Below are positions 20,539 through 53,954 of a stretch of DNA of 64,000 bases, in pieces. Positions within the stretch are counted from its first letter, which is position 1, and every line of letters starts with the position of its first letter. Below the pieces are notes generated by a model, which saw only the letters and a list, made by a program, of their open reading frames with translations, searched no databases and was not told the DNA's origin. This DNA comes from Myxococcales bacterium. Lineage in GTDB: Bacteria > Myxococcota_A > Polyangia > Polyangiales > Polyangiaceae. The position numbers and the translations under genes were made by a program. The DNA is taken from assembly GCA_016703425.1 (NCBI GenBank), contig JADJCA010000011.1, positions 122,050 to 186,049 on the forward strand. The letters run 5' to 3'.

Positions 20539-20752
20539 CTGCTGCTCGTCGGCATCGCCCCTCGAATCTACCGATGGAACACCACGTCGACCAGGGACCC
20601 AAGGCTGGCGACGTCTCATTCACACGAAGCGGCTCGTCGCCGACGTGCCTCGCGAGATGTGCTACCTCTGGACGCGAAAGGGTGCGGCGCGGGCCGCAGG
20701 ACATCGGATGGTCGGGCCGCCATCCACGCCGGGATACCGGCGAGGTCCCACC

Positions 20753-36302: not shown

Positions 36303-36333
36303 TCAATTCCCTCCCACGAGGGGAGCCTCATCC

Positions 36334-36414
36334 GGGTAGTGCTGGCGGGTAGTGCTGACGGGCAGTGCTGACGGGTAGTGTTGACGTCGACCGGGAAGGT
36401 TAGCCGTGCTGACG
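36334..36414. repeat. tandem 13-bp direct repeats (GGGYAGTGYTGRC x4 plus a partial fifth) in a divergent promoter region
   Basis: Four contiguous units: GGGTAGTGCTGGC, GGGTAGTGCTGAC, GGGCAGTGCTGAC and GGGTAGTGTTGAC (36334-36385). A related AGCCGTGCTGACG follows at 36402-36414. The array lies between the lepB start (36302) and the CAP-lipoprotein start (36582). Confidence 0.8.
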
Positions 36415-44710: not shown

Positions 44711-45565
44711 CTAACGCGTCAGCGCCGCACGCGCTGCCGTTAGGGCTTCGTCACGCCACGCGTAGAGTTCCTGCTCGCGCACGCCTTCGCGGGCGGCGAC
44801 CTTGGCCGGCGAAAGACCAAGGGCGAGGTCTAGGATCGCCGCGAGCTTTCGGTCGACGGTGCCCGGCGCTGCCGGCGCCAAGGGCCTTTGAAGCGAGAGC
44901 GGCGTCCTCTGCCACGACAGGAGCCGCACGAGCTCGCGGTCGTCGCCCGAGAAAGCGCGGCGGCCATGGAGCATGCGAAAGTTGTCGACGAGGAGCAGCT
45001 CACCGGCGGCGAGCAGGAACTCGATGCGCGGCGCCTTCGCCACAAAGGCGGCAAAGCGAGCCCCGATGGAGTCGCTGGCATCGAGGGGCATGGGAGAGAC
45101 CGTCAAGATGGGGGCCCCGGTCGCGTGGCGACGGGCCGTGGGGCCCACGAAGTCTCCAAAGTAGAACGGGATGCGGCGCGGGACGTCGAAGAGCGCGCGG
45201 TAGAGTTCGCTGTCTTCGCGCTCGACGGTCGCCAAGAGGCGCGCACCGTCGACGAGCTGGCATTCGCCGCCGGAAGGCGCGGGCCTTCGGCACCACATCA
45301 CCTGGAGCGCGGGTGCGTTTCCCAGGTACGGCTGGCTGTCGGTGTGCATCGGCGTCACGACGTTCGTCGATGCGAAAGAGCGCCCGCCAGGGACACTACG
45401 AATCGTCTGCCGCTCGACCATCAAGGGCCGCTCGCCGACGAGCGCCTCCACGAAGGAGAAGGGCTCGCTGAGCAGCGACGCGTCGAAGGCTCCGCTCGGG
45501 AGCACGACGAAGCCGCGCTCCGCCAACGGCGCGCGAACGTCCTCGACGCTGCTCCGGACTGTCAT
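44711..45565 (-). CDS. TauD/TfdA-family Fe(II)/2-oxoglutarate-dependent dioxygenase
   Basis: HxD facial-triad motif in TPMHTDSQPY and the second-His/2OG-Arg region in FRMLHGRRAF. Size is about 280 aa. Lies 10 nt downstream of the preceding cluster gene. Confidence 0.7.
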   Translation of the reverse strand: MTVRSSVEDVRAPLAERGFVVLPSGAFDASLLSEPFSFVEALVGERPLMVERQTIRSVPGGRSFASTNVVTPMHTDSQPYLGNAPALQVMWCRRPAPSGGECQLVDGARLLATVEREDSELYRALFDVPRRIPFYFGDFVGPTARRHATGAPILTVSPMPLDASDSIGARFAAFVAKAPRIEFLLAAGELLLVDNFRMLHGRRAFSGDDRELVRLLSWQRTPLSLQRPLAPAAPGTVDRKLAAILDLALGLSPAKVAAREGVREQELYAWRDEALTAARAALTR

Positions 45566-45575
45566 GAGCGGGCTG

Positions 45576-47009
45576 TCATGAGAGCGCTCCGTCGAAGCCG
45601 CCTCGTTCGAACGAGAAGGTGCTCGTGAGGAGCCACGACGGCACCGCGAAAAGGTGCGCCAGCGGTTGGCCGCTGGGCACGTCGATGGCGCGATCGACGT
45701 GGGGAAGCTGGAAGACCGCCGGCGTGGCGTGAAAGCGGTCGGTCTCGATGACGCCGCGCATGACGTCGTAGCCTGCGCCGGGGATGCCTTCGATGAGCGT
45801 CGCGGTGCCCTTTGGCGTGTGCACGAGGGCGGCGGGCTTCACGAAGAAGTGGGCCTCGCCTCGCGGGTGAGGCGTCACGTATTTCGTCAGGTAGAGCAGC
45901 GCTCCTTCGTGCGGCGCATCGCCGGACGCCGCGCGGGCGGCCATGAGCGGCTGCCATCGGCTACGGACCTCGGCGGCGAAGCGCGCGAGCTCGTCTTTGT
46001 CGGGCTCCACGGACAAGTCGAGGCCATCAAAGCGCGCGCGGAATGAGACGGCGTTGTCGACGGCGAGGCGATCGGCTTCGCCTTGGTAGGGCGAGGGGCC
46101 ATCCGGCCCATGAACGCTCTCGGCCTTCTCCTCACGAACGGAGCGCGGACCGCCGAGCGCGACGGAGAGCGCTGCCTCCGCCGGGTACGCTTCTCGCGGC
46201 GCGACGGCCGCCGACGAACGCTCGCGCCGGTACTTTCGCGAGACGTCGCCGCCGCGTTTCGTCGCAAAGTAGTTCGCGTCGTAGAACGCGAGGTGCGCGG
46301 CCGTCACGGAGGGCGTGTCCTCGATGGCGCCGACGGCGAGGCGCGTCGTCGCCAGAAGCGGTGCCAGCGTCGCGATCTCACCGGCGAGCGCGAAGGTGTC
46401 GGTGTTGGCCTCGAGCTCGAGCACGAGCGGCGTGAAGCGCTCCGTGTCCAAGATGAGCGCTTCTCGCGCTTGGTACGCGAAGGAGCGGCGGTTCTTGATC
46501 ATCGACTGCCGGAGCCGAAGGCCCGGCGCGGGCCGCACGAAGAGCCCCGTAAAGAGGAAGAGCCGCGGCGCTTCTCGACGCACCGCTTGCCCGAAGCGAA
46601 CGGCGAGCGGCGCGGGCGGTGGAGCGCCGACGATGTTCGCGGCAAAGAGCTCGCTCCAGTGAGCATCGGGAGACAAGAGCCCTCGCGCGTGAAGCATCGG
46701 GAGGTTCGCGCGGTGGAGCCGAGCGAGATCGCCCTCCCCGTCGAAGGAGACCGCGTAACCGCGCCCGCGGCGAGACACGTCGAGGCGCTTCGAGAGCGCC
46801 ACTTGGAAGCCGTAGGCGTTCCCTTCAAGCAGAGGCGCACATGCCTGGGCCACGCGAAGGGGCACGCTTCCGCCGAGGGTGCCGTCGCGGCGCTCGAGGC
46901 GACAGAAGCCACCGAGGACGTCGATGACCTCGAACGCTGGCGCGTTGCCTTCCCCGGCGACGCGCTCGCTTTCGCCTCGACGGGGCGCGTCCAAAGGCAC
47001 GGCGATCAT
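45576..47009 (-). CDS. hypothetical protein (478 aa) in the MNIO cluster
   Basis: ATG 47009 (MIAVPLDAPRRG) overlaps the stop of the upstream membrane-protein gene (ATGA). Balanced composition and high GC3. No family recognised. Confidence 0.55.
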   Translation of the reverse strand: MIAVPLDAPRRGESERVAGEGNAPAFEVIDVLGGFCRLERRDGTLGGSVPLRVAQACAPLLEGNAYGFQVALSKRLDVSRRGRGYAVSFDGEGDLARLHRANLPMLHARGLLSPDAHWSELFAANIVGAPPPAPLAVRFGQAVRREAPRLFLFTGLFVRPAPGLRLRQSMIKNRRSFAYQAREALILDTERFTPLVLELEANTDTFALAGEIATLAPLLATTRLAVGAIEDTPSVTAAHLAFYDANYFATKRGGDVSRKYRRERSSAAVAPREAYPAEAALSVALGGPRSVREEKAESVHGPDGPSPYQGEADRLAVDNAVSFRARFDGLDLSVEPDKDELARFAAEVRSRWQPLMAARAASGDAPHEGALLYLTKYVTPHPRGEAHFFVKPAALVHTPKGTATLIEGIPGAGYDVMRGVIETDRFHATPAVFQLPHVDRAIDVPSGQPLAHLFAVPSWLLTSTFSFERGGFDGALS

Positions 47010-48058
47010 CCGCAGCCGCCACCGCCGCCGCAGCCGCCGCCACCGCCACAACCGCCGCCGCCGCCGCAGCTCGAGGAGCTACAAGAGCTTCCTCCATCAC
47101 CGCTGCCACCGCCGCTCGACGACGACGTGTGCATTTGTGGCGGCGGCGCGAAGGCCGCGGCCATGGCCGCGTAGGCGGGCATCGCCGCCAACATGGCGAC
47201 GCCGCCGACGGCGACGCCGAGGCACACTTCGAGCGGATTCGTACGCCGACCGCCGCGCACATCAGACTGAAGCGACGACGTCGCGTCGTCGAGCCACGCG
47301 AGGTATTGCTTCGGCCGCGTGCTCTCTTCGAGGCCGCGCGTCATGAGGAACGTCGTGAGCGCCACGAGGACCATCGCGCCGAAGAGAACGAACGGGAACG
47401 GCGCGTCGCCTTGCGTTAGCTCGGCGCGCACGACGATGCGAATGACGCCAAGCGATAGGGCGATGGCGCCGCCCGCCAGGACGATGACCTTCAACGTCGA
47501 GATGACGCTCGCGGGACGCACGAAGCCGGCCGAAGCGAGATCGCCCTTGATGGCGTCTTCGATGCCATACGCCACGCTGCGGGCCGCGGCGCGCACTTCG
47601 GCGGGCGTCGGGCTTTGCTTTCCCTTGAGCGCATCGAAGAAGCGGCCCATGACCGGCTCGCCGGGGTGCACGCCTCCGAGGTTCTGGTAGGCCTTGCCGT
47701 CAGGCGACGCGACGAGCCAGCCCGCCGACAAGGCACCGCTGACGAGGGTCTCTTCGACGGCGTCGTTCTTCCCGCGCAGGTACGCGACGGGCCACAGCTC
47801 GTCGATGCGAGGGATGTACCCGACGGTCAGGCGCTCGTGGCGCGCGACGGGCGCGGCGGCGGGAATCCGGTAGCCCTCCGGGGTGACGGCAAGCACCTCC
47901 GGCTTCGCCTTGGTCGACGAAGCGTCGGCGCTTCGAGCGACGCCGTCGCGGAGCGCCTTCGTGACGAGGAGGATCGGCACGGCCATCATGAGGTAGATGA
48001 GGGCCCACGCTTCCGTGGGACCCATGTCGAAGGGGAAGAAGCCGAAGAGCTCGCTCAC
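47006..48058 (-). CDS. polytopic membrane protein with a C-terminal Ser/Gly/Cys repeat tail SSSSGGGSGDGGSSCSSSSC(GGGGGC)3G (TIGR04222-like architecture)
   Basis: Four predicted TM helices (AWALIYLMMAVPILLV; VIVLAGGAIALSLGVIRIVV; FPFVLFGAMVLVALTTFLM; VCLGVAVGGVAMLAAMPAYAAMAAAFA). The tail is seen directly in the DNA (47010-47130) as three perfect GGGGGC hexapeptides. The start overlaps the nucleotidyltransferase stop by 4 bp. Confidence 0.65.
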   Translation of the reverse strand: MSELFGFFPFDMGPTEAWALIYLMMAVPILLVTKALRDGVARSADASSTKAKPEVLAVTPEGYRIPAAAPVARHERLTVGYIPRIDELWPVAYLRGKNDAVEETLVSGALSAGWLVASPDGKAYQNLGGVHPGEPVMGRFFDALKGKQSPTPAEVRAAARSVAYGIEDAIKGDLASAGFVRPASVISTLKVIVLAGGAIALSLGVIRIVVRAELTQGDAPFPFVLFGAMVLVALTTFLMTRGLEESTRPKQYLAWLDDATSSLQSDVRGGRRTNPLEVCLGVAVGGVAMLAAMPAYAAMAAAFAPPPQMHTSSSSGGGSGDGGSSCSSSSCGGGGGCGGGGGCGGGGGCG

Positions 48059-48786
48059 GCGCGGCTCTCCTGGCCCGAGTCCTGTCCGAAGCGATCGACG
48101 TCGACGAGAGCGCGATCAAGCAGCTTCGCGAGGGCGTCGTAAGCGGCCCGCGCGTCTTCGCGTGCCCGGCGAAGCGGGGCCGGGTCGACCTCGTAGGTCT
48201 TCGCCGCGGCGTCGATGACCGGGTCAAGGCGGTCTTCGACGGCGAGCCCCTTGAGGGCCAGGAGCGCCCAGAGGGGCCCGCGCACCTGCTTGATCTTGCG
48301 CTCGACGGCGCGACCAAAGGTCGGGTCGCCGCCCATGTCGGTCGCCACGCGCCGCATGCGAATGCGCGCTTCGCGAAGCTCTTGTTCGATGCGGAGGCGC
48401 TTGTGCTCGCTCTCGATGCGCATGCCCTCGAAGGGACTCTTGCCGCGTACGACGATGGAGTGGCGCGCCACGTCGTCGTAGAGGAGCGGGAAGCAATCGG
48501 CCGCGTTGGGCACCTCGTCGCGACGCAACATCAAGACCTCGATGCGCGCCGAGAAGCGAGCGAGCTGCAAGGCGGGCCCGAGCGCGGCGAGCTTGCCTGC
48601 GTCGTCGTTTTCGAGAACGAGGAGCACGTCGACGTCGCTCTCGCCCTCGCGGTAGTCGCCGCGGGCAGCGCTCCCGTAGACGAGCATCGCGACGAGGTCC
48701 GTATCGAGGGCCGCGGCGAGCGTGGCCTCGAGCTCGTCTAAGCGAGCTTTGATGTTCGTGGGAAGGCGATCGAGGGCGGTGGTCAT
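48055..48786 (-). CDS. nucleotidyltransferase-domain protein (Pol-beta superfamily)
   Basis: Minimal NTase signature LVYGSAARGDYREGESDVDVLLV (GS-x9-13-D-x-D). 243 aa. Lies 18 nt downstream of the DUF692 gene. Confidence 0.65.
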   Translation of the reverse strand: MTTALDRLPTNIKARLDELEATLAAALDTDLVAMLVYGSAARGDYREGESDVDVLLVLENDDAGKLAALGPALQLARFSARIEVLMLRRDEVPNAADCFPLLYDDVARHSIVVRGKSPFEGMRIESEHKRLRIEQELREARIRMRRVATDMGGDPTFGRAVERKIKQVRGPLWALLALKGLAVEDRLDPVIDAAAKTYEVDPAPLRRAREDARAAYDALAKLLDRALVDVDRFGQDSGQESRA

Positions 48787-48804: not shown

Positions 48805-50217
48805 TCAGGGCGGCGGCGCGACGAACGACGGAGCGGGGACCGGCTTGACGGGTGCGGCGCGGGAGCCTGACTCCCAAAGGCGCACTGGGGCGAAAGCGCC
48901 GATGCCCTTGTAGGCGCGCAGTCGCGAGCCATCGGGGCGCGTGACGCTCCCCACGAAGGGCCCTCTCCGGGGCGTCGAGCCGTCGCCGTCGAAGGCGAAG
49001 CGCGCCTCGAGGAGCAGCGCGTCGAAGGCCGCGTCATCGGCGAGCGCCTCGATGGCCAGCGCCGCGCGGGCGATGGCGCGGGCGTCTTTGGGGCCAGCGC
49101 CACGGCGAGCTCGCTCAGTCTCGTGCGTGACACGTTCTGCGAGGGCCCGAAGCTCACCGATGCGCGCACCCAAACGGCCGAGCAAGGGCAGCGCATCGTC
49201 GACGCGCTTGCGCTCAAGGACGCCGCGCGCGCGCGCGATCGCGGCCGCGCCGATGGCCTCCGCGAGGGGCGTGTTCCAATCGGGCGTCTTGCCGACGAGC
49301 AGGGCCGCCACCGCCGCCTGACGCTCCACCAAGCGACGCCGCGCGGCGCCGTCGACCGGCACCGAGGCCGGCGGCTCAGCCGCGCGAGGCGTCGCTCCTA
49401 CCGCACCCCGCTTGTCCGGCCTCATGTTGCGGAGCCGCGAGAGCTCCCCGGCGATCTCAACGAAGGACTCGAAGCCAGCGTCCCGCTCCAGGAGGATGGG
49501 AACGTCCGGCGACACCTTGAGCACGGCGTCGATGAGTCGATACACGGCGTCGGGGACGGCGTGGGCGTGGGTGTCGAAGTAGAAGCCGTCTTCCCAGACG
49601 CCGCCGGCGACGTGGAGCATCGCAACCTGCTCGAGAGGAAACGCGCGGAGCGTCGCCAGCGGATCATGGCCGGAGTTCACGGCGTTGGCGTAGAGGTTTC
49701 CGACGTCCAGCAAGAGGTGGCAGCCGGTCCGACGGACCACCTCTTGGTAGAACGTCGGCTCGTCCATCTCGTGGTCCGGCGACGGAAACGTGAAGGCCAC
49801 GTTCTCGAGCAGGAGCGGAATGTCAGGCAGGACGCGCCGCGCTTTGGCCACGTTGGCCGCGAGGACCTCGAGCGCCGCGCGGGTGCGCGGCAACTCGGTG
49901 AGGTGACCGATCTCGTGACGACCGCCGCGCGTGAACGCCACGTGCTCCGACACGAGCGGCGCGCGAAGCTCGCGGCACAGTGCCGCGAGGCGCTCGAGCC
50001 GCACCTCGTCGATGCCGTCGGCGCTGCCCAGAGAGAGCTTCACGCCGTGCGGCACGACGGGCCACACCGAGGCGAGGGCCGCCGCCTCGCGACGCGTGTC
50101 GCGCTGCGCGAAGCAGCTCTCGGCGACGACCTCGACGAAGTCGACGCGATCGCGAGCGAAGAGCAGCTCGGTCGCGATCTCCTTGCGGTGGCCGACGCCT
50201 GTCGCTCGGGAAAACAC
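48805..50217 (-). CDS. DUF692 / MNIO-family enzyme (MbnB/TglH/BufB-like multinuclear non-haem iron oxidase, TIM-barrel) with a roughly 190-aa C-terminal extension, possibly a fused partner domain
   Basis: DUF692 signature run: GVGHRKEIATELL, DFVEVVAESCF, HGVKLSLGS, LVSEHVAF, LLLENVAF, TGCHLLLDVGNLYANAVNSGHD, LHVAGG and DTHAH. About 280 aa of TIM-barrel are followed by an Ala/Arg-rich helical extension (RRRLVERQAAVAALLVGKTPDW...) that has the position and size of a DUF2063/MbnC-like partner. Confidence 0.8.
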   Translation of the reverse strand: MFSRATGVGHRKEIATELLFARDRVDFVEVVAESCFAQRDTRREAAALASVWPVVPHGVKLSLGSADGIDEVRLERLAALCRELRAPLVSEHVAFTRGGRHEIGHLTELPRTRAALEVLAANVAKARRVLPDIPLLLENVAFTFPSPDHEMDEPTFYQEVVRRTGCHLLLDVGNLYANAVNSGHDPLATLRAFPLEQVAMLHVAGGVWEDGFYFDTHAHAVPDAVYRLIDAVLKVSPDVPILLERDAGFESFVEIAGELSRLRNMRPDKRGAVGATPRAAEPPASVPVDGAARRRLVERQAAVAALLVGKTPDWNTPLAEAIGAAAIARARGVLERKRVDDALPLLGRLGARIGELRALAERVTHETERARRGAGPKDARAIARAALAIEALADDAAFDALLLEARFAFDGDGSTPRRGPFVGSVTRPDGSRLRAYKGIGAFAPVRLWESGSRAAPVKPVPAPSFVAPPP

Positions 50218-50250: not shown

Positions 50251-51267
<1,017 letters not shown>

Positions 51268-52832: not shown

Positions 52833-53954
52833 ATGGCAGATCGTCGGAGCTCGTCGGCACGACCTCGCGCGCGGGCCGCGCGGCGGGGCCGTCTGTCCTG
52901 GTGCGCGTCGCGCGCCGCAGCGTGGCTCTTGGCGGGCTCGGCACGGTTTGTCGGCACGGGGTTTGTCGGCACGGGGGTTGTCGGCACCGGGGTTGTCGGC
53001 GCGATCGGTGTTGGCGCGGTGGCCTTGGGGGCGAGCGCGTGCGCCGCCGGCGGTGCACCTTCGCAACCACCGTTCGTTCGCAGCGCGCGCCACGTCGACG
53101 TGGAGATCCCCCAGTTCGAGATTCACGCCGACAACGTCGACCGTTTCGCCACGTGTCCGCCGCAAGGCGGCATGACGCAGGGCTGGATTCCGCCGGTGCC
53201 GCCGTGGTCAGCCCCGAAGGGTGTGGTGGCCGCGCCGACGTCGACGCAAGCCGTCGACGCGGGTCCGTCTTTCTTCGGCGACGCGGCCCCGCCGCCGGAG
53301 GGCGAAATCAACCTCGGGCGCAGCTCCGCCGATCCGATGAACGCGCCGTCGCCGGCCGAGAAGGCGATCCGCGACACGTTGCAACCCTTCCGGGCGTGTC
53401 ACCGCCGCGCGTTGCGCCACGACCAGACGCAGAGCGGGCACGTCGCCGTCGTGGTTCGCGTCGGCGCCGACGGAAAGGTCGTTCGCACCGAGAGCCATGG
53501 CGCCTGCGACCTGTCTCGCGAAGCCATTGCTTGCATGTTGCAGACGGCCGCGCGTTTGCGGTTTGATCCGCCAGCGGACGGCAACGCGACCATCATCATT
53601 CCCGCGGTGTTCGCCCCTCGCGGCGGCATCGTGCGGGCGGTACCGGGCCAACACGACGACTACGCGGCGGCCGTGGCCGTCACCGTCGAGACGGGCCGCG
53701 CCGAGCTGCACGCGTGCGATGAGCGCGAGCGCCGCGCCGTGCGGCCACGCTCCGGCTGGGGCAACTTCATCATCGATCTCGACGAGAATGGGCGCGCGGC
53801 GCGCCAGAACATCGAACCCTACGACGGGAACCAGGAGCTGCTCCGCTGCGCGAGCGACGTGGTGGGTCGGCTAAAGTTTCCCGCGCCGCCGGGGGGCACG
53901 GCCACGGTGCGCGTCCGCATCGAGTTCAACCCGAGCGCCAGCGTGAGCCAATAG
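52833..53954 (+). CDS. signal-anchored protein with two AgmX/PglI-type C-terminal Cys-pair domains
   Basis: ATG 52833 (MADRRSSSARPRARAARRGRLSWCASRAAAWLLAGS...). The hydrophobic anchor contains FVGTG/FVGTG/VVGTG repeats. Two homologous about 75-aa domains, each with a conserved Cys pair (ACHRRALRHDQ...GACDLSREAIACML and LHACDERERRAV...LLRCASDVVGRL), resemble AgmX/PglI C-terminal domains. Confidence 0.6.
   Translation: MADRRSSSARPRARAARRGRLSWCASRAAAWLLAGSARFVGTGFVGTGVVGTGVVGAIGVGAVALGASACAAGGAPSQPPFVRSARHVDVEIPQFEIHADNVDRFATCPPQGGMTQGWIPPVPPWSAPKGVVAAPTSTQAVDAGPSFFGDAAPPPEGEINLGRSSADPMNAPSPAEKAIRDTLQPFRACHRRALRHDQTQSGHVAVVVRVGADGKVVRTESHGACDLSREAIACMLQTAARLRFDPPADGNATIIIPAVFAPRGGIVRAVPGQHDDYAAAVAVTVETGRAELHACDERERRAVRPRSGWGNFIIDLDENGRAARQNIEPYDGNQELLRCASDVVGRLKFPAPPGGTATVRVRIEFNPSASVSQ
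52945..53004. repeat. four tandem 15-bp in-frame repeats (TTTGTCGGCACGGGG x2, then 2 degenerate) inside the signal-anchor coding region
   Basis: 52945-59 and 52960-74 are identical. 52975-89 is GTTGTCGGCACCGGG and 52990-53004 is GTTGTCGGCGCGATC. They encode FVGTG-FVGTG-VVGTG-VVGAI. Confidence 0.8.

Follow-up and report, generated by a model that had tools for sequence, protein, structure and literature searches.

A conserved cysteine- and glycine-rich tail on a myxobacterial membrane protein is a likely substrate of an MNIO enzyme encoded in the same operon

In a 64,000-nucleotide (nt) stretch of DNA from a Myxococcales bacterium (contig JADJCA010000011.1 of assembly GCA_016703425.1, positions 122,050 to 186,049 of the forward strand; hereafter the window, in whose coordinates all positions are given), we found a gene for a four-transmembrane (TM) protein that ends in five cysteines spaced by glycine and serine, and that lies in a conserved five-gene operon with an MNIO enzyme. 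We propose that the tail of this Cys-tail protein is probably the substrate of the operon's MNIO. We also favor, a little less firmly, the reading as a whole, in which the tail is modified by the MNIO, displayed outside and binds a soft metal. A rapidly growing range of unusual peptide chemistry and copper-handling molecules comes from MNIO enzymes, and TIGR04222 membrane proteins, to which the Cys-tail protein is related, are the largest uncharacterised group of their proposed substrates. With an invariant target motif, an apparently fused partner domain and conserved accessory enzymes, the locus offers a clean test case.

The five-cysteine tail is encoded in frame at the end of a real gene

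The Cys-tail gene occupies 47006-48058 on the minus strand; its 350 codons begin with GTG and are followed by a TGA stop codon (47006-47008). We found that its translated open reading frame (ORF) ends in ...PPPQMHTSSSSGGGSGDGGSSCSSSSCGGGGGCGGGGGCGGGGGCG*, which follows the pattern SSCSSSSC(GGGGGC)x3-G. A first-pass annotation, made from the sequence of the window, had reported five cysteines spaced by Gly and Ser, including a (GGGGGC)x3 repeat preceded by SSSSC, at the C-terminus of a 4-TM protein; the cysteines and the repeat are all seen in the translated ORF, and four hydrophobic segments are found both by Kyte-Doolittle hydropathy and in the AlphaFold model. The low-complexity tail as a whole covers residues 308-350 (47009..47137, minus strand; QMHTSSSSGGGSGDGGSSCSSSSCGGGGGCGGGGGCGGGGGCG, five cysteines) and is predicted to be disordered and extracytoplasmic, with AlphaFold pLDDT values below 50 across residues 319-350. 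The (GGGGGC)x3 block, identical in its amino acids at 16 loci, covers residues 332-349 (47012..47065, minus strand) and together with Cys331 makes up the motif C(G5C)3. Cysteines in the tail are spaced by 4-5 residues, and Cys-Cys, Cys-X-Cys and Cys-X-X-Cys motifs of the metallothionein type are absent.

In the tail DNA, Tandem Repeats Finder detects a repeat with a period of 18 nt (3.4 copies, 83% matches, 47010-47070). The three DNA units of the block are non-identical (GGCGGCGGCGGCGGTTGT, GGCGGTGGCGGCGGCTGC and GGCGGCGGTGGCGGCTGC), with variation between GGC and GGT and between TGC and TGT codons. Across the Cys-tail gene, GC content at codon positions 1, 2 and 3 is 0.68, 0.56 and 0.85, a profile expected of a coding frame in a genome of 69% GC, indicating that the ORF is a real gene. 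When we searched for the pattern C[GS]{3,6}C[GS]{3,6}C[GS]{3,6}C, we found a single occurrence in the six-frame translation of the window and none in 100 dinucleotide-preserving shuffles. On the opposite strand, an ORF at 46083-47174 (plus strand) with PPPPPQ repeats reads PPPPPQPPPPPQPPPPPQ; it mirrors the Gly and Cys codons and is a shadow of the Cys-tail gene, not a gene of its own.

The tail is conserved as an amino acid sequence

To assemble homologues of the Cys-tail protein, we used an exhaustive profile search of 1.84 billion representatives, which returned 205 relatives; word-index searches, run once with the protein body and once with a profile of 25 sequences, gave one match each. 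Closer relatives were compared as DNA and comprised a Nannocystaceae metagenome-assembled genome (MAG; L001), Pendulispora albinea (L010), other MAGs and 18 metagenome contigs, the metagenome scan having been queried with a five-sequence alignment. A Gly/Ser tail with 2-7 cysteines is present in 60 of the 103 sequences of at least 270 residues (the window protein included). In this family, most spacers are runs of 3, 4 or 5 residues made up purely of Gly or Ser, and the final cysteine nearly always stands 1-2 residues before the C-terminus (CGG in 34, CS in 18 and CG in 3). At 16 loci the C-terminus is exactly C(G5C)3 plus a final G, S or GG. In one relative (P0026, L007:1479-2609) the tail has ten-Gly spacers, C-G10-C-G10-C-GG.

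The 16 C(G5C)3 blocks are written in 15 DNA versions. Any two of these versions show 3-15 (mean 9.2) differences over 57 nt, all of them at third codon positions. One peptide kept through 15 DNA versions, with third-position changes only, indicates that the constraint acts on the amino acids. The protein bodies, compared for four of the 16 C(G5C)3 proteins, share 31-42% pairwise identity; judged from these alignments, the tail is the most strongly constrained part of the Cys-tail protein. GGC makes up 65% of the Gly codons in the block and 66% elsewhere in the operon. We also compared strains on contigs with a 99%-identical MNIO. In a related strain whose Cys-tail gene is 16-18 nt different, the tail has four changes, all synonymous, and the same length; three further contigs with identical proteins were chosen by identity and are uninformative on variation.

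A repeat of this kind could in principle be a non-functional product of simple-sequence slippage or a mis-called frame in a GC-rich genome. The GGC-rich DNA and its 18-nt period fit such an origin, as does the presence of four rather than three G5C units in the tails of L018 and L020, two lineages which indicate that units can be gained or lost over long times. However, all complete Cys-tail orthologues that we examined carry the repeat at their C-terminus in the coding frame; none of these proteins ends before it, and in none does it lie in another frame or on another strand. Together with the third-position-only changes among the DNA versions, the constant length between strains and the absence of the motif from shuffled sequence, this refutes an artefact, to which we assign a negligible probability. 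The first-pass annotation had argued that the repeat is maintained at the protein level and not by slippage, and the codon-position pattern, the operon-like Gly codon usage and the stable strain length bear this out.

The Cys-tail gene belongs to a conserved operon with an MNIO enzyme

The Cys-tail gene is the third of five closely packed minus-strand genes. The first encodes the MNIO enzyme (470 residues, 48805..50217), which matches the whole of the Pfam model PF05114 (MbnB_TglH_ChrH) with 252.6 bits. It is followed by a Pol-beta-type nucleotidyltransferase of 243 residues with a GS...DVD motif (48055..48786; PF01909, E 1.6e-6). Downstream of the Cys-tail gene are a gene for a 477-residue protein with no Pfam, NCBIfam or PDB match (45576..47009), whose ATG overlaps the stop of the Cys-tail gene, and the last gene of the operon, which encodes a TauD/TfdA-family Fe(II)/2-oxoglutarate oxygenase of 284 residues (44711..45565; PF02668, 80.7 bits). 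The MNIO gene is two genes upstream of the Cys-tail gene, and the successive spacers are 18 nt and –4 nt. Start and stop codons overlap by four nucleotides both between the nucleotidyltransferase and Cys-tail genes (GTGA, 48055-48058) and between the Cys-tail and 477-residue-protein genes (ATGA, 47006-47009), which suggests translational coupling; through the ATGA overlap, the final Gly codon of the tail and its stop codon double as the start of the next gene. A promoter scan found no promoter-like sites, and terminator-like sites were found only at the level of shuffled sequence.

The order MNIO, nucleotidyltransferase, membrane protein, 477-residue-type protein and TauD oxygenase is repeated in L001, L011, L019, L020, L023 and L034, and shorter contigs and P. 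albinea preserve part of it. The nucleotidyltransferase gene lies between the MNIO and membrane-protein genes in most related loci (in L007, whose contig is not long enough to show an MNIO, two paralogous 225-residue ORFs stand upstream in its place), and the TauD gene is conserved downstream in many. Orthologues of the 477-residue protein are encoded downstream in L001, L006, L010, L011, L018-L020, L023, L025, L026, L029 and L034. Two of the four such orthologues analysed, L011:10227-11507 and L006:1576-2943, gave weak, sub-threshold C-terminal matches to DUF6065 (E 8.8e-4 and 5.5e-3), and the window copy gave none. A FabH-like KAS III gene at 50251-51267 (minus strand) lies 33 nt upstream of the MNIO gene and is present in the close strain too; it is missing from more distant loci with listed neighbours and probably stands outside the system.

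Of the 19 related Cys-tail loci whose contigs include enough upstream sequence, 17 have an adjacent MNIO gene. The first-pass annotation had proposed enzymatic Cys modification or metal chelation for the tail, and the MNIO two genes upstream lends support to this proposal, with the tail as the probable target. The MNIO might instead serve another substrate, leaving the tail as an unmodified, flexible poly-thiol that buffers metal, senses redox state or exchanges disulfides. Two sets of observations speak for free thiols. First, two loci (L018:5290-9108 and L028:2915-4635) have no adjacent MNIO, and both keep the nucleotidyltransferase followed by the Cys-tail protein; L018 also has the 477-residue-type protein and TauD, and its upstream gene encodes a divergent SppA (Peptidase_S49) signal-peptide peptidase. 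Second, many genomes with TIGR04222 proteins, a third of them, lack MNIOs (PMC12452194). Against free thiols, the exact five-Gly spacing and the near-terminal cysteine exceed what thiol chelation needs, clusters of the metallothionein type (Cys-Cys, Cys-X-Cys) are missing, and in the operon with which the MNIO is so regularly associated we found no other Cys-rich candidate substrate. We consider free thiols improbable. A homologue in L009 whose tail has no cysteine has no MNIO nearby.

The MNIO has an intact active-site pattern and a predicted partner-like domain

The MNIO of the window consists of a catalytic TIM barrel (residues 6-265) and a C-terminal partner-like domain of about 200 residues. 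A sequence search of the PDB gave 3BWW (E 1.3e-24), TglH (4.3e-19) and MbnB (5e-8) as its closest solved relatives. When we aligned it with 3BWW, which is 72% identical to HvfB (HvfBC preprint), the metal-ligand positions H57, H92, E138, D171, N174, H202, D215 and H217 and the Glu of an LLERD motif aligned. The Asn, Asp and His ligands of iron site 3 are essential in the HvfBC enzyme (HvfBC preprint), and all three are kept in the window MNIO. By this alignment, the active-site pattern is intact.

The C-terminal extension (residues 270-470, 48808..49410, minus strand) is modelled as seven helices and a five-strand sheet. Its best fold match is TglI, and MbnC is also detected, both with moderate scores; Foldseek on the model of the domain gave nothing significant, and sequence searches of the extension and of the 477-residue protein against the PDB and Pfam gave nothing usable. 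The two best matches are the two solved partner proteins of the family, which is unlikely to arise by chance, and on the strength of these model comparisons we interpret the extension as a partner domain of the TglI/DUF2063 type, fused to the catalytic barrel. High activity is reported for an engineered fusion of HvfB and HvfC (HvfBC study), which suggests that a fused partner is favourable for biochemistry. Five orthologous MNIOs (P0205, P0208, P0247, P0257 and P0264) carry the precomputed Pfam family PF26136, which may model the C-terminal partner-like domain.

These comparisons also bear on which chemistry the enzyme performs. The tail could undergo other MNIO chemistry, such as a TglH-like beta-carbon excision close to the C-terminus, cross-linking, or nucleotidylation or hydroxylation of its Ser/Gly tract, with a function other than metal binding. 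TglH is the second-best solved relative of the enzyme and TglI the best fold match of the partner domain, and the nucleotidyltransferase, the 477-residue protein and TauD are absent from bufferin and oxazolin clusters. However, the nearest solved MNIO is the HvfB-like 3BWW, the repeated Gly-flanked cysteines resemble the repeated cysteines of HvfA, and a survey of MNIO clusters places the TIGR04222-linked MNIOs near those of bufferins and oxazolin (PMC12452194). Such other chemistry is therefore, in our estimate, an outside prospect.

The Cys-tail protein is a divergent relative of TIGR04222 proteins

The Cys-tail protein of the window has no Pfam or NCBIfam match of its own and does not match TIGR04222 even at E ≤ 10. 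In contrast, 41 of 54 aligned relatives match TIGR04222 (E ≤ 0.01; best 6.1e-21). An orthologue fragment, P0001, which carries the JGI name 'TIGR04222 family', scores 42.3 bits on the TIGR04222.1 model, whose curated cut-off is 43 bits, and the window protein matches P0001 with a phmmer E of 2.2e-33. The layout is also that of the family, a multi-TM body followed by a low-complexity Ser/Gly/Cys C-terminal region. On these sequence comparisons, the window protein is clearly homologous to TIGR04222 proteins, though below the model threshold. The named relatives are Myxococcota (Nannocystaceae, Pendulispora, Kofleriaceae and Polyangiaceae), and the curated TIGR04222 model misses this whole myxobacterial branch. 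We found no DUF2282, Buf or EGKCG signature in the window protein with Pfam and NCBIfam, and no Sec signal peptide. A match to CwsA in Pfam reached 17 bits against a cut-off of 26.7 and was dismissed as a TM/low-complexity match.

A 2025 survey of MNIO clusters, published in Microb Genom, counted more than 3,500 TIGR04222 proteins, mostly from Actinomycetota, with Ser/Gly-rich C-terminal regions that are interspersed with Cys and predicted to be periplasmic, and proposed in silico, without experiments, that subsets of them are MNIO substrates (PMC12452194). More than 10% of TIGR04222 genes come after an MNIO gene, the clusters contain no DUF2063 genes, and many of them seem to have no partner (PMC12452194). 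The window locus agrees with this description in its several TM segments, its disordered Ser/Gly C-terminus with cysteines predicted outside, its gene downstream of an MNIO gene and its lack of a DUF2063 gene. The system is thus not new in kind, as the class had been proposed. In contrast to the mostly actinomycete family, however, it represents a sub-threshold branch from Myxococcota with an invariant C(G5C)3, a partner apparently fused to the MNIO, and three further conserved operon genes (the nucleotidyltransferase, the protein of about 450 residues and TauD), which makes it a distinct variant. In such clusters, 'no partner gene' can mean 'partner fused'. In its main text, the survey says nothing of nucleotidyltransferases, TauD, myxobacteria or fusions of MNIO and partner in the TIGR04222 context (PMC12452194), and we found no later paper in the literature on TIGR04222 proteins as MNIO substrates.

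The tail is predicted to lie outside the cytoplasmic membrane

The Cys-tail protein (350 residues, four TM segments; 47006..48058, minus strand) has hydrophobic segments at about residues 18-36, 191-209, 221-239 and 278-296 by Kyte-Doolittle, and the AlphaFold model (pLDDT 87) agrees; database homologues served as input for structure prediction. A short acidic stretch at the N-terminus precedes the first segment, which is uncleaved in the model. A large loop between TM1 and TM2 (about residues 35-176; 47531..47956, minus strand), predicted to be cytoplasmic, contains the conserved motif W-x-[IV]-A-Y-L-R-G-G and invariant G80 and P83. In the model, residues 49-84, which include G80 and P83, are poorly ordered, and the W-x-[IV]-A-Y-L-R-G-G motif is carried by a helical/beta domain (residues 85-176). 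This domain is followed by a TM2-TM3 hairpin, an amphipathic helix with the motif Y-L-x-W-L-D-D-A-T-x-S-L-R-x-D-V-x-x-G-R-R, a weak TM4 and the disordered tail. The fourth segment (about residues 277-300; 47159..47230, minus strand) is Ala/Gly-rich and weakly hydrophobic, with a Kyte-Doolittle peak of 1.87, and AlphaFold splits it into helices at 275-285, 287-292 and 294-303; a Pro-rich linker and the tail come after it.

To orient the protein, we applied the positive-inside rule to the mean number of Lys and Arg residues in 61 relatives. This number is 0.25 ahead of TM1; in the large loop it is 2.7 near one end and 3.1 near the other; loop 2 averages 0.85, loop 3 has 6.0 and the tail 1.2. The tail of the window protein has no Lys or Arg. 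By this rule the N-terminus and the tail face outward and the large domain and loop 3 are cytoplasmic, so that the tail would, on balance, probably lie on the outer side of the cytoplasmic membrane. The position of the tail is the least certain part of the topology, since TM4 is weak and the positive-inside rule is a simple one. The large loop, cytoplasmic here by the same rule, is periplasmic in the description of TIGR04222. Just before TM1, the protein has a conserved motif F-[FW]-P-F-[DN]-[ML] with an invariant Pro9 (48020-48046, residues 5-13), which is predicted on the same outer side as the tail and might cooperate with it.

We considered known C-terminal signals as well and rejected them. 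Sorting signals of the PEP-CTERM/GlyGly-CTERM type consist of a motif, a TM segment and a basic tail, the reverse of the arrangement here, and for lipidation of the near-terminal cysteine we found no supporting gene.

A tail that follows the last TM segment could also be a core peptide that is cut off after modification, with the membrane protein as a large leader or scaffold and a diffusible, methanobactin-like metal binder as the product. The conserved Pro-rich linker between the last TM segment and the tail and the position of the last cysteine next to the C-terminus would suit such a release, and MNIO products such as methanobactin are released peptides. Against release, the operon has no conserved gene for a protease or an exporter in the related loci compared, and we saw no conserved cleavage motif. 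The authors of the survey favor modification of bona fide proteins for the TIGR04222 group (PMC12452194). We regard release as unlikely, if slightly less so than free thiols or other MNIO chemistry.

A proposed mechanism and its relation to known MNIO systems

In the reading that we prefer, the tail would be the substrate ('core') region of a ribosomally made, membrane-anchored protein that is modified by the enzymes of its own operon. In the cytoplasm, the fused MNIO-partner enzyme would oxidise the Gly-flanked cysteines of the disordered tail. The products, by analogy with oxazolin (HvfA) and the bufferins, would most probably be heterocycles of the 5-thiooxazole type, and the nucleotidyltransferase, the 477-residue protein and the TauD oxygenase would probably add or assist further steps. 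The last hydrophobic segment would then insert, leaving the uncharged tail exposed on the outer side of the cytoplasmic membrane, where its regularly spaced heterocycles or thiols may bind a soft metal such as copper. We put forward the particular chemistry and the metal tentatively. The same operon is present in cultured P. albinea, which makes the hypothesis directly testable. In its sequence record, CP089984.1, the MNIO gene lies at about 2,440,136-2,441,578 and the membrane-protein gene at about 2,442,237-2,443,253.

The best characterised parallel is oxazolin, in which HvfB with HvfC turns six repeated C-terminal cysteines of HvfA into copper-binding 5-thiooxazoles in nontypeable Haemophilus influenzae. 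HvfBC activity is reported to give a chromophore near 302 nm, and a four-electron oxidation, as in bufferin/oxazolin chemistry, is expected to lower the mass by 4 Da per Cys. Both systems have repeated C-terminal cysteines beside glycine and an MNIO of the 3BWW/HvfB type, and oxazolin requires a partner protein. In contrast to HvfA, which is Sec-exported and soluble and has EGKCG-type repeats and a separate DUF2063 partner, the window system has a four-TM carrier without a signal peptide, pure Gly/Ser spacers, an apparently fused partner and three extra genes. In the bufferins (Buf1/DUF2282 and Buf2, with BufB/BufC), an MNIO and its partner likewise convert cysteines to thiooxazoles that chelate copper outside the cytoplasm (PMC12452194). 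Bufferins, however, are small and folded, with a signal peptide and disulfide bonds; the window protein lacks both the DUF2282 and the Buf signature and has G5C and S4C repeats.

In the methanobactin system (MbnA with MbnB/MbnC), MNIO chemistry also turns cysteines of a ribosomally made peptide into a copper ligand, and MbnB and MbnC are detectable relatives of the window enzyme and its extension. MbnA, however, is a short peptide of leader and core that undergoes cleavage and secretion, its products are oxazolone/thioamide pairs, and the sequence similarity is much weaker (E 5e-8). In the 3-thiaglutamate system (TglA with TglH/TglI), a cysteine at or close to the C-terminus is modified, and TglI gives the best fold match to the partner-like domain. 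TglA, however, has a single C-terminal cysteine, which a PEARL enzyme adds, and the pathway yields a small molecule and involves no membrane protein.

A bolder extension of the preferred reading would make the system a new class of membrane-tethered, multiply tailored product. The cytoplasmic domain of the carrier would be the leader, C(G5C)3 would become a row of heterocycles, and the nucleotidyltransferase, the DUF6065-like protein and TauD would make modifications new to characterised MNIO pathways. The product would then be a surface 'metal wire' or sensor and not a soluble copper buffer. We hold this extension to be speculative and rather doubtful.

Other features of the window

Apart from the operon, we found a match to the nhaA-I RNA (RF03057, riboswitch type) at 20680-20725 on the plus strand, which covers the full length of the Rfam model with 49.6 bits against a gathering score of 37. 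Two further tandem repeats are present in the window, one at 36333-36386 (13 bp x 4.2, CGGGTAGTGCTGA, 90% matches) and one at 52948-53000 (15 bp x 3.5, TTGTCGGCACGGGGG, 94% matches).
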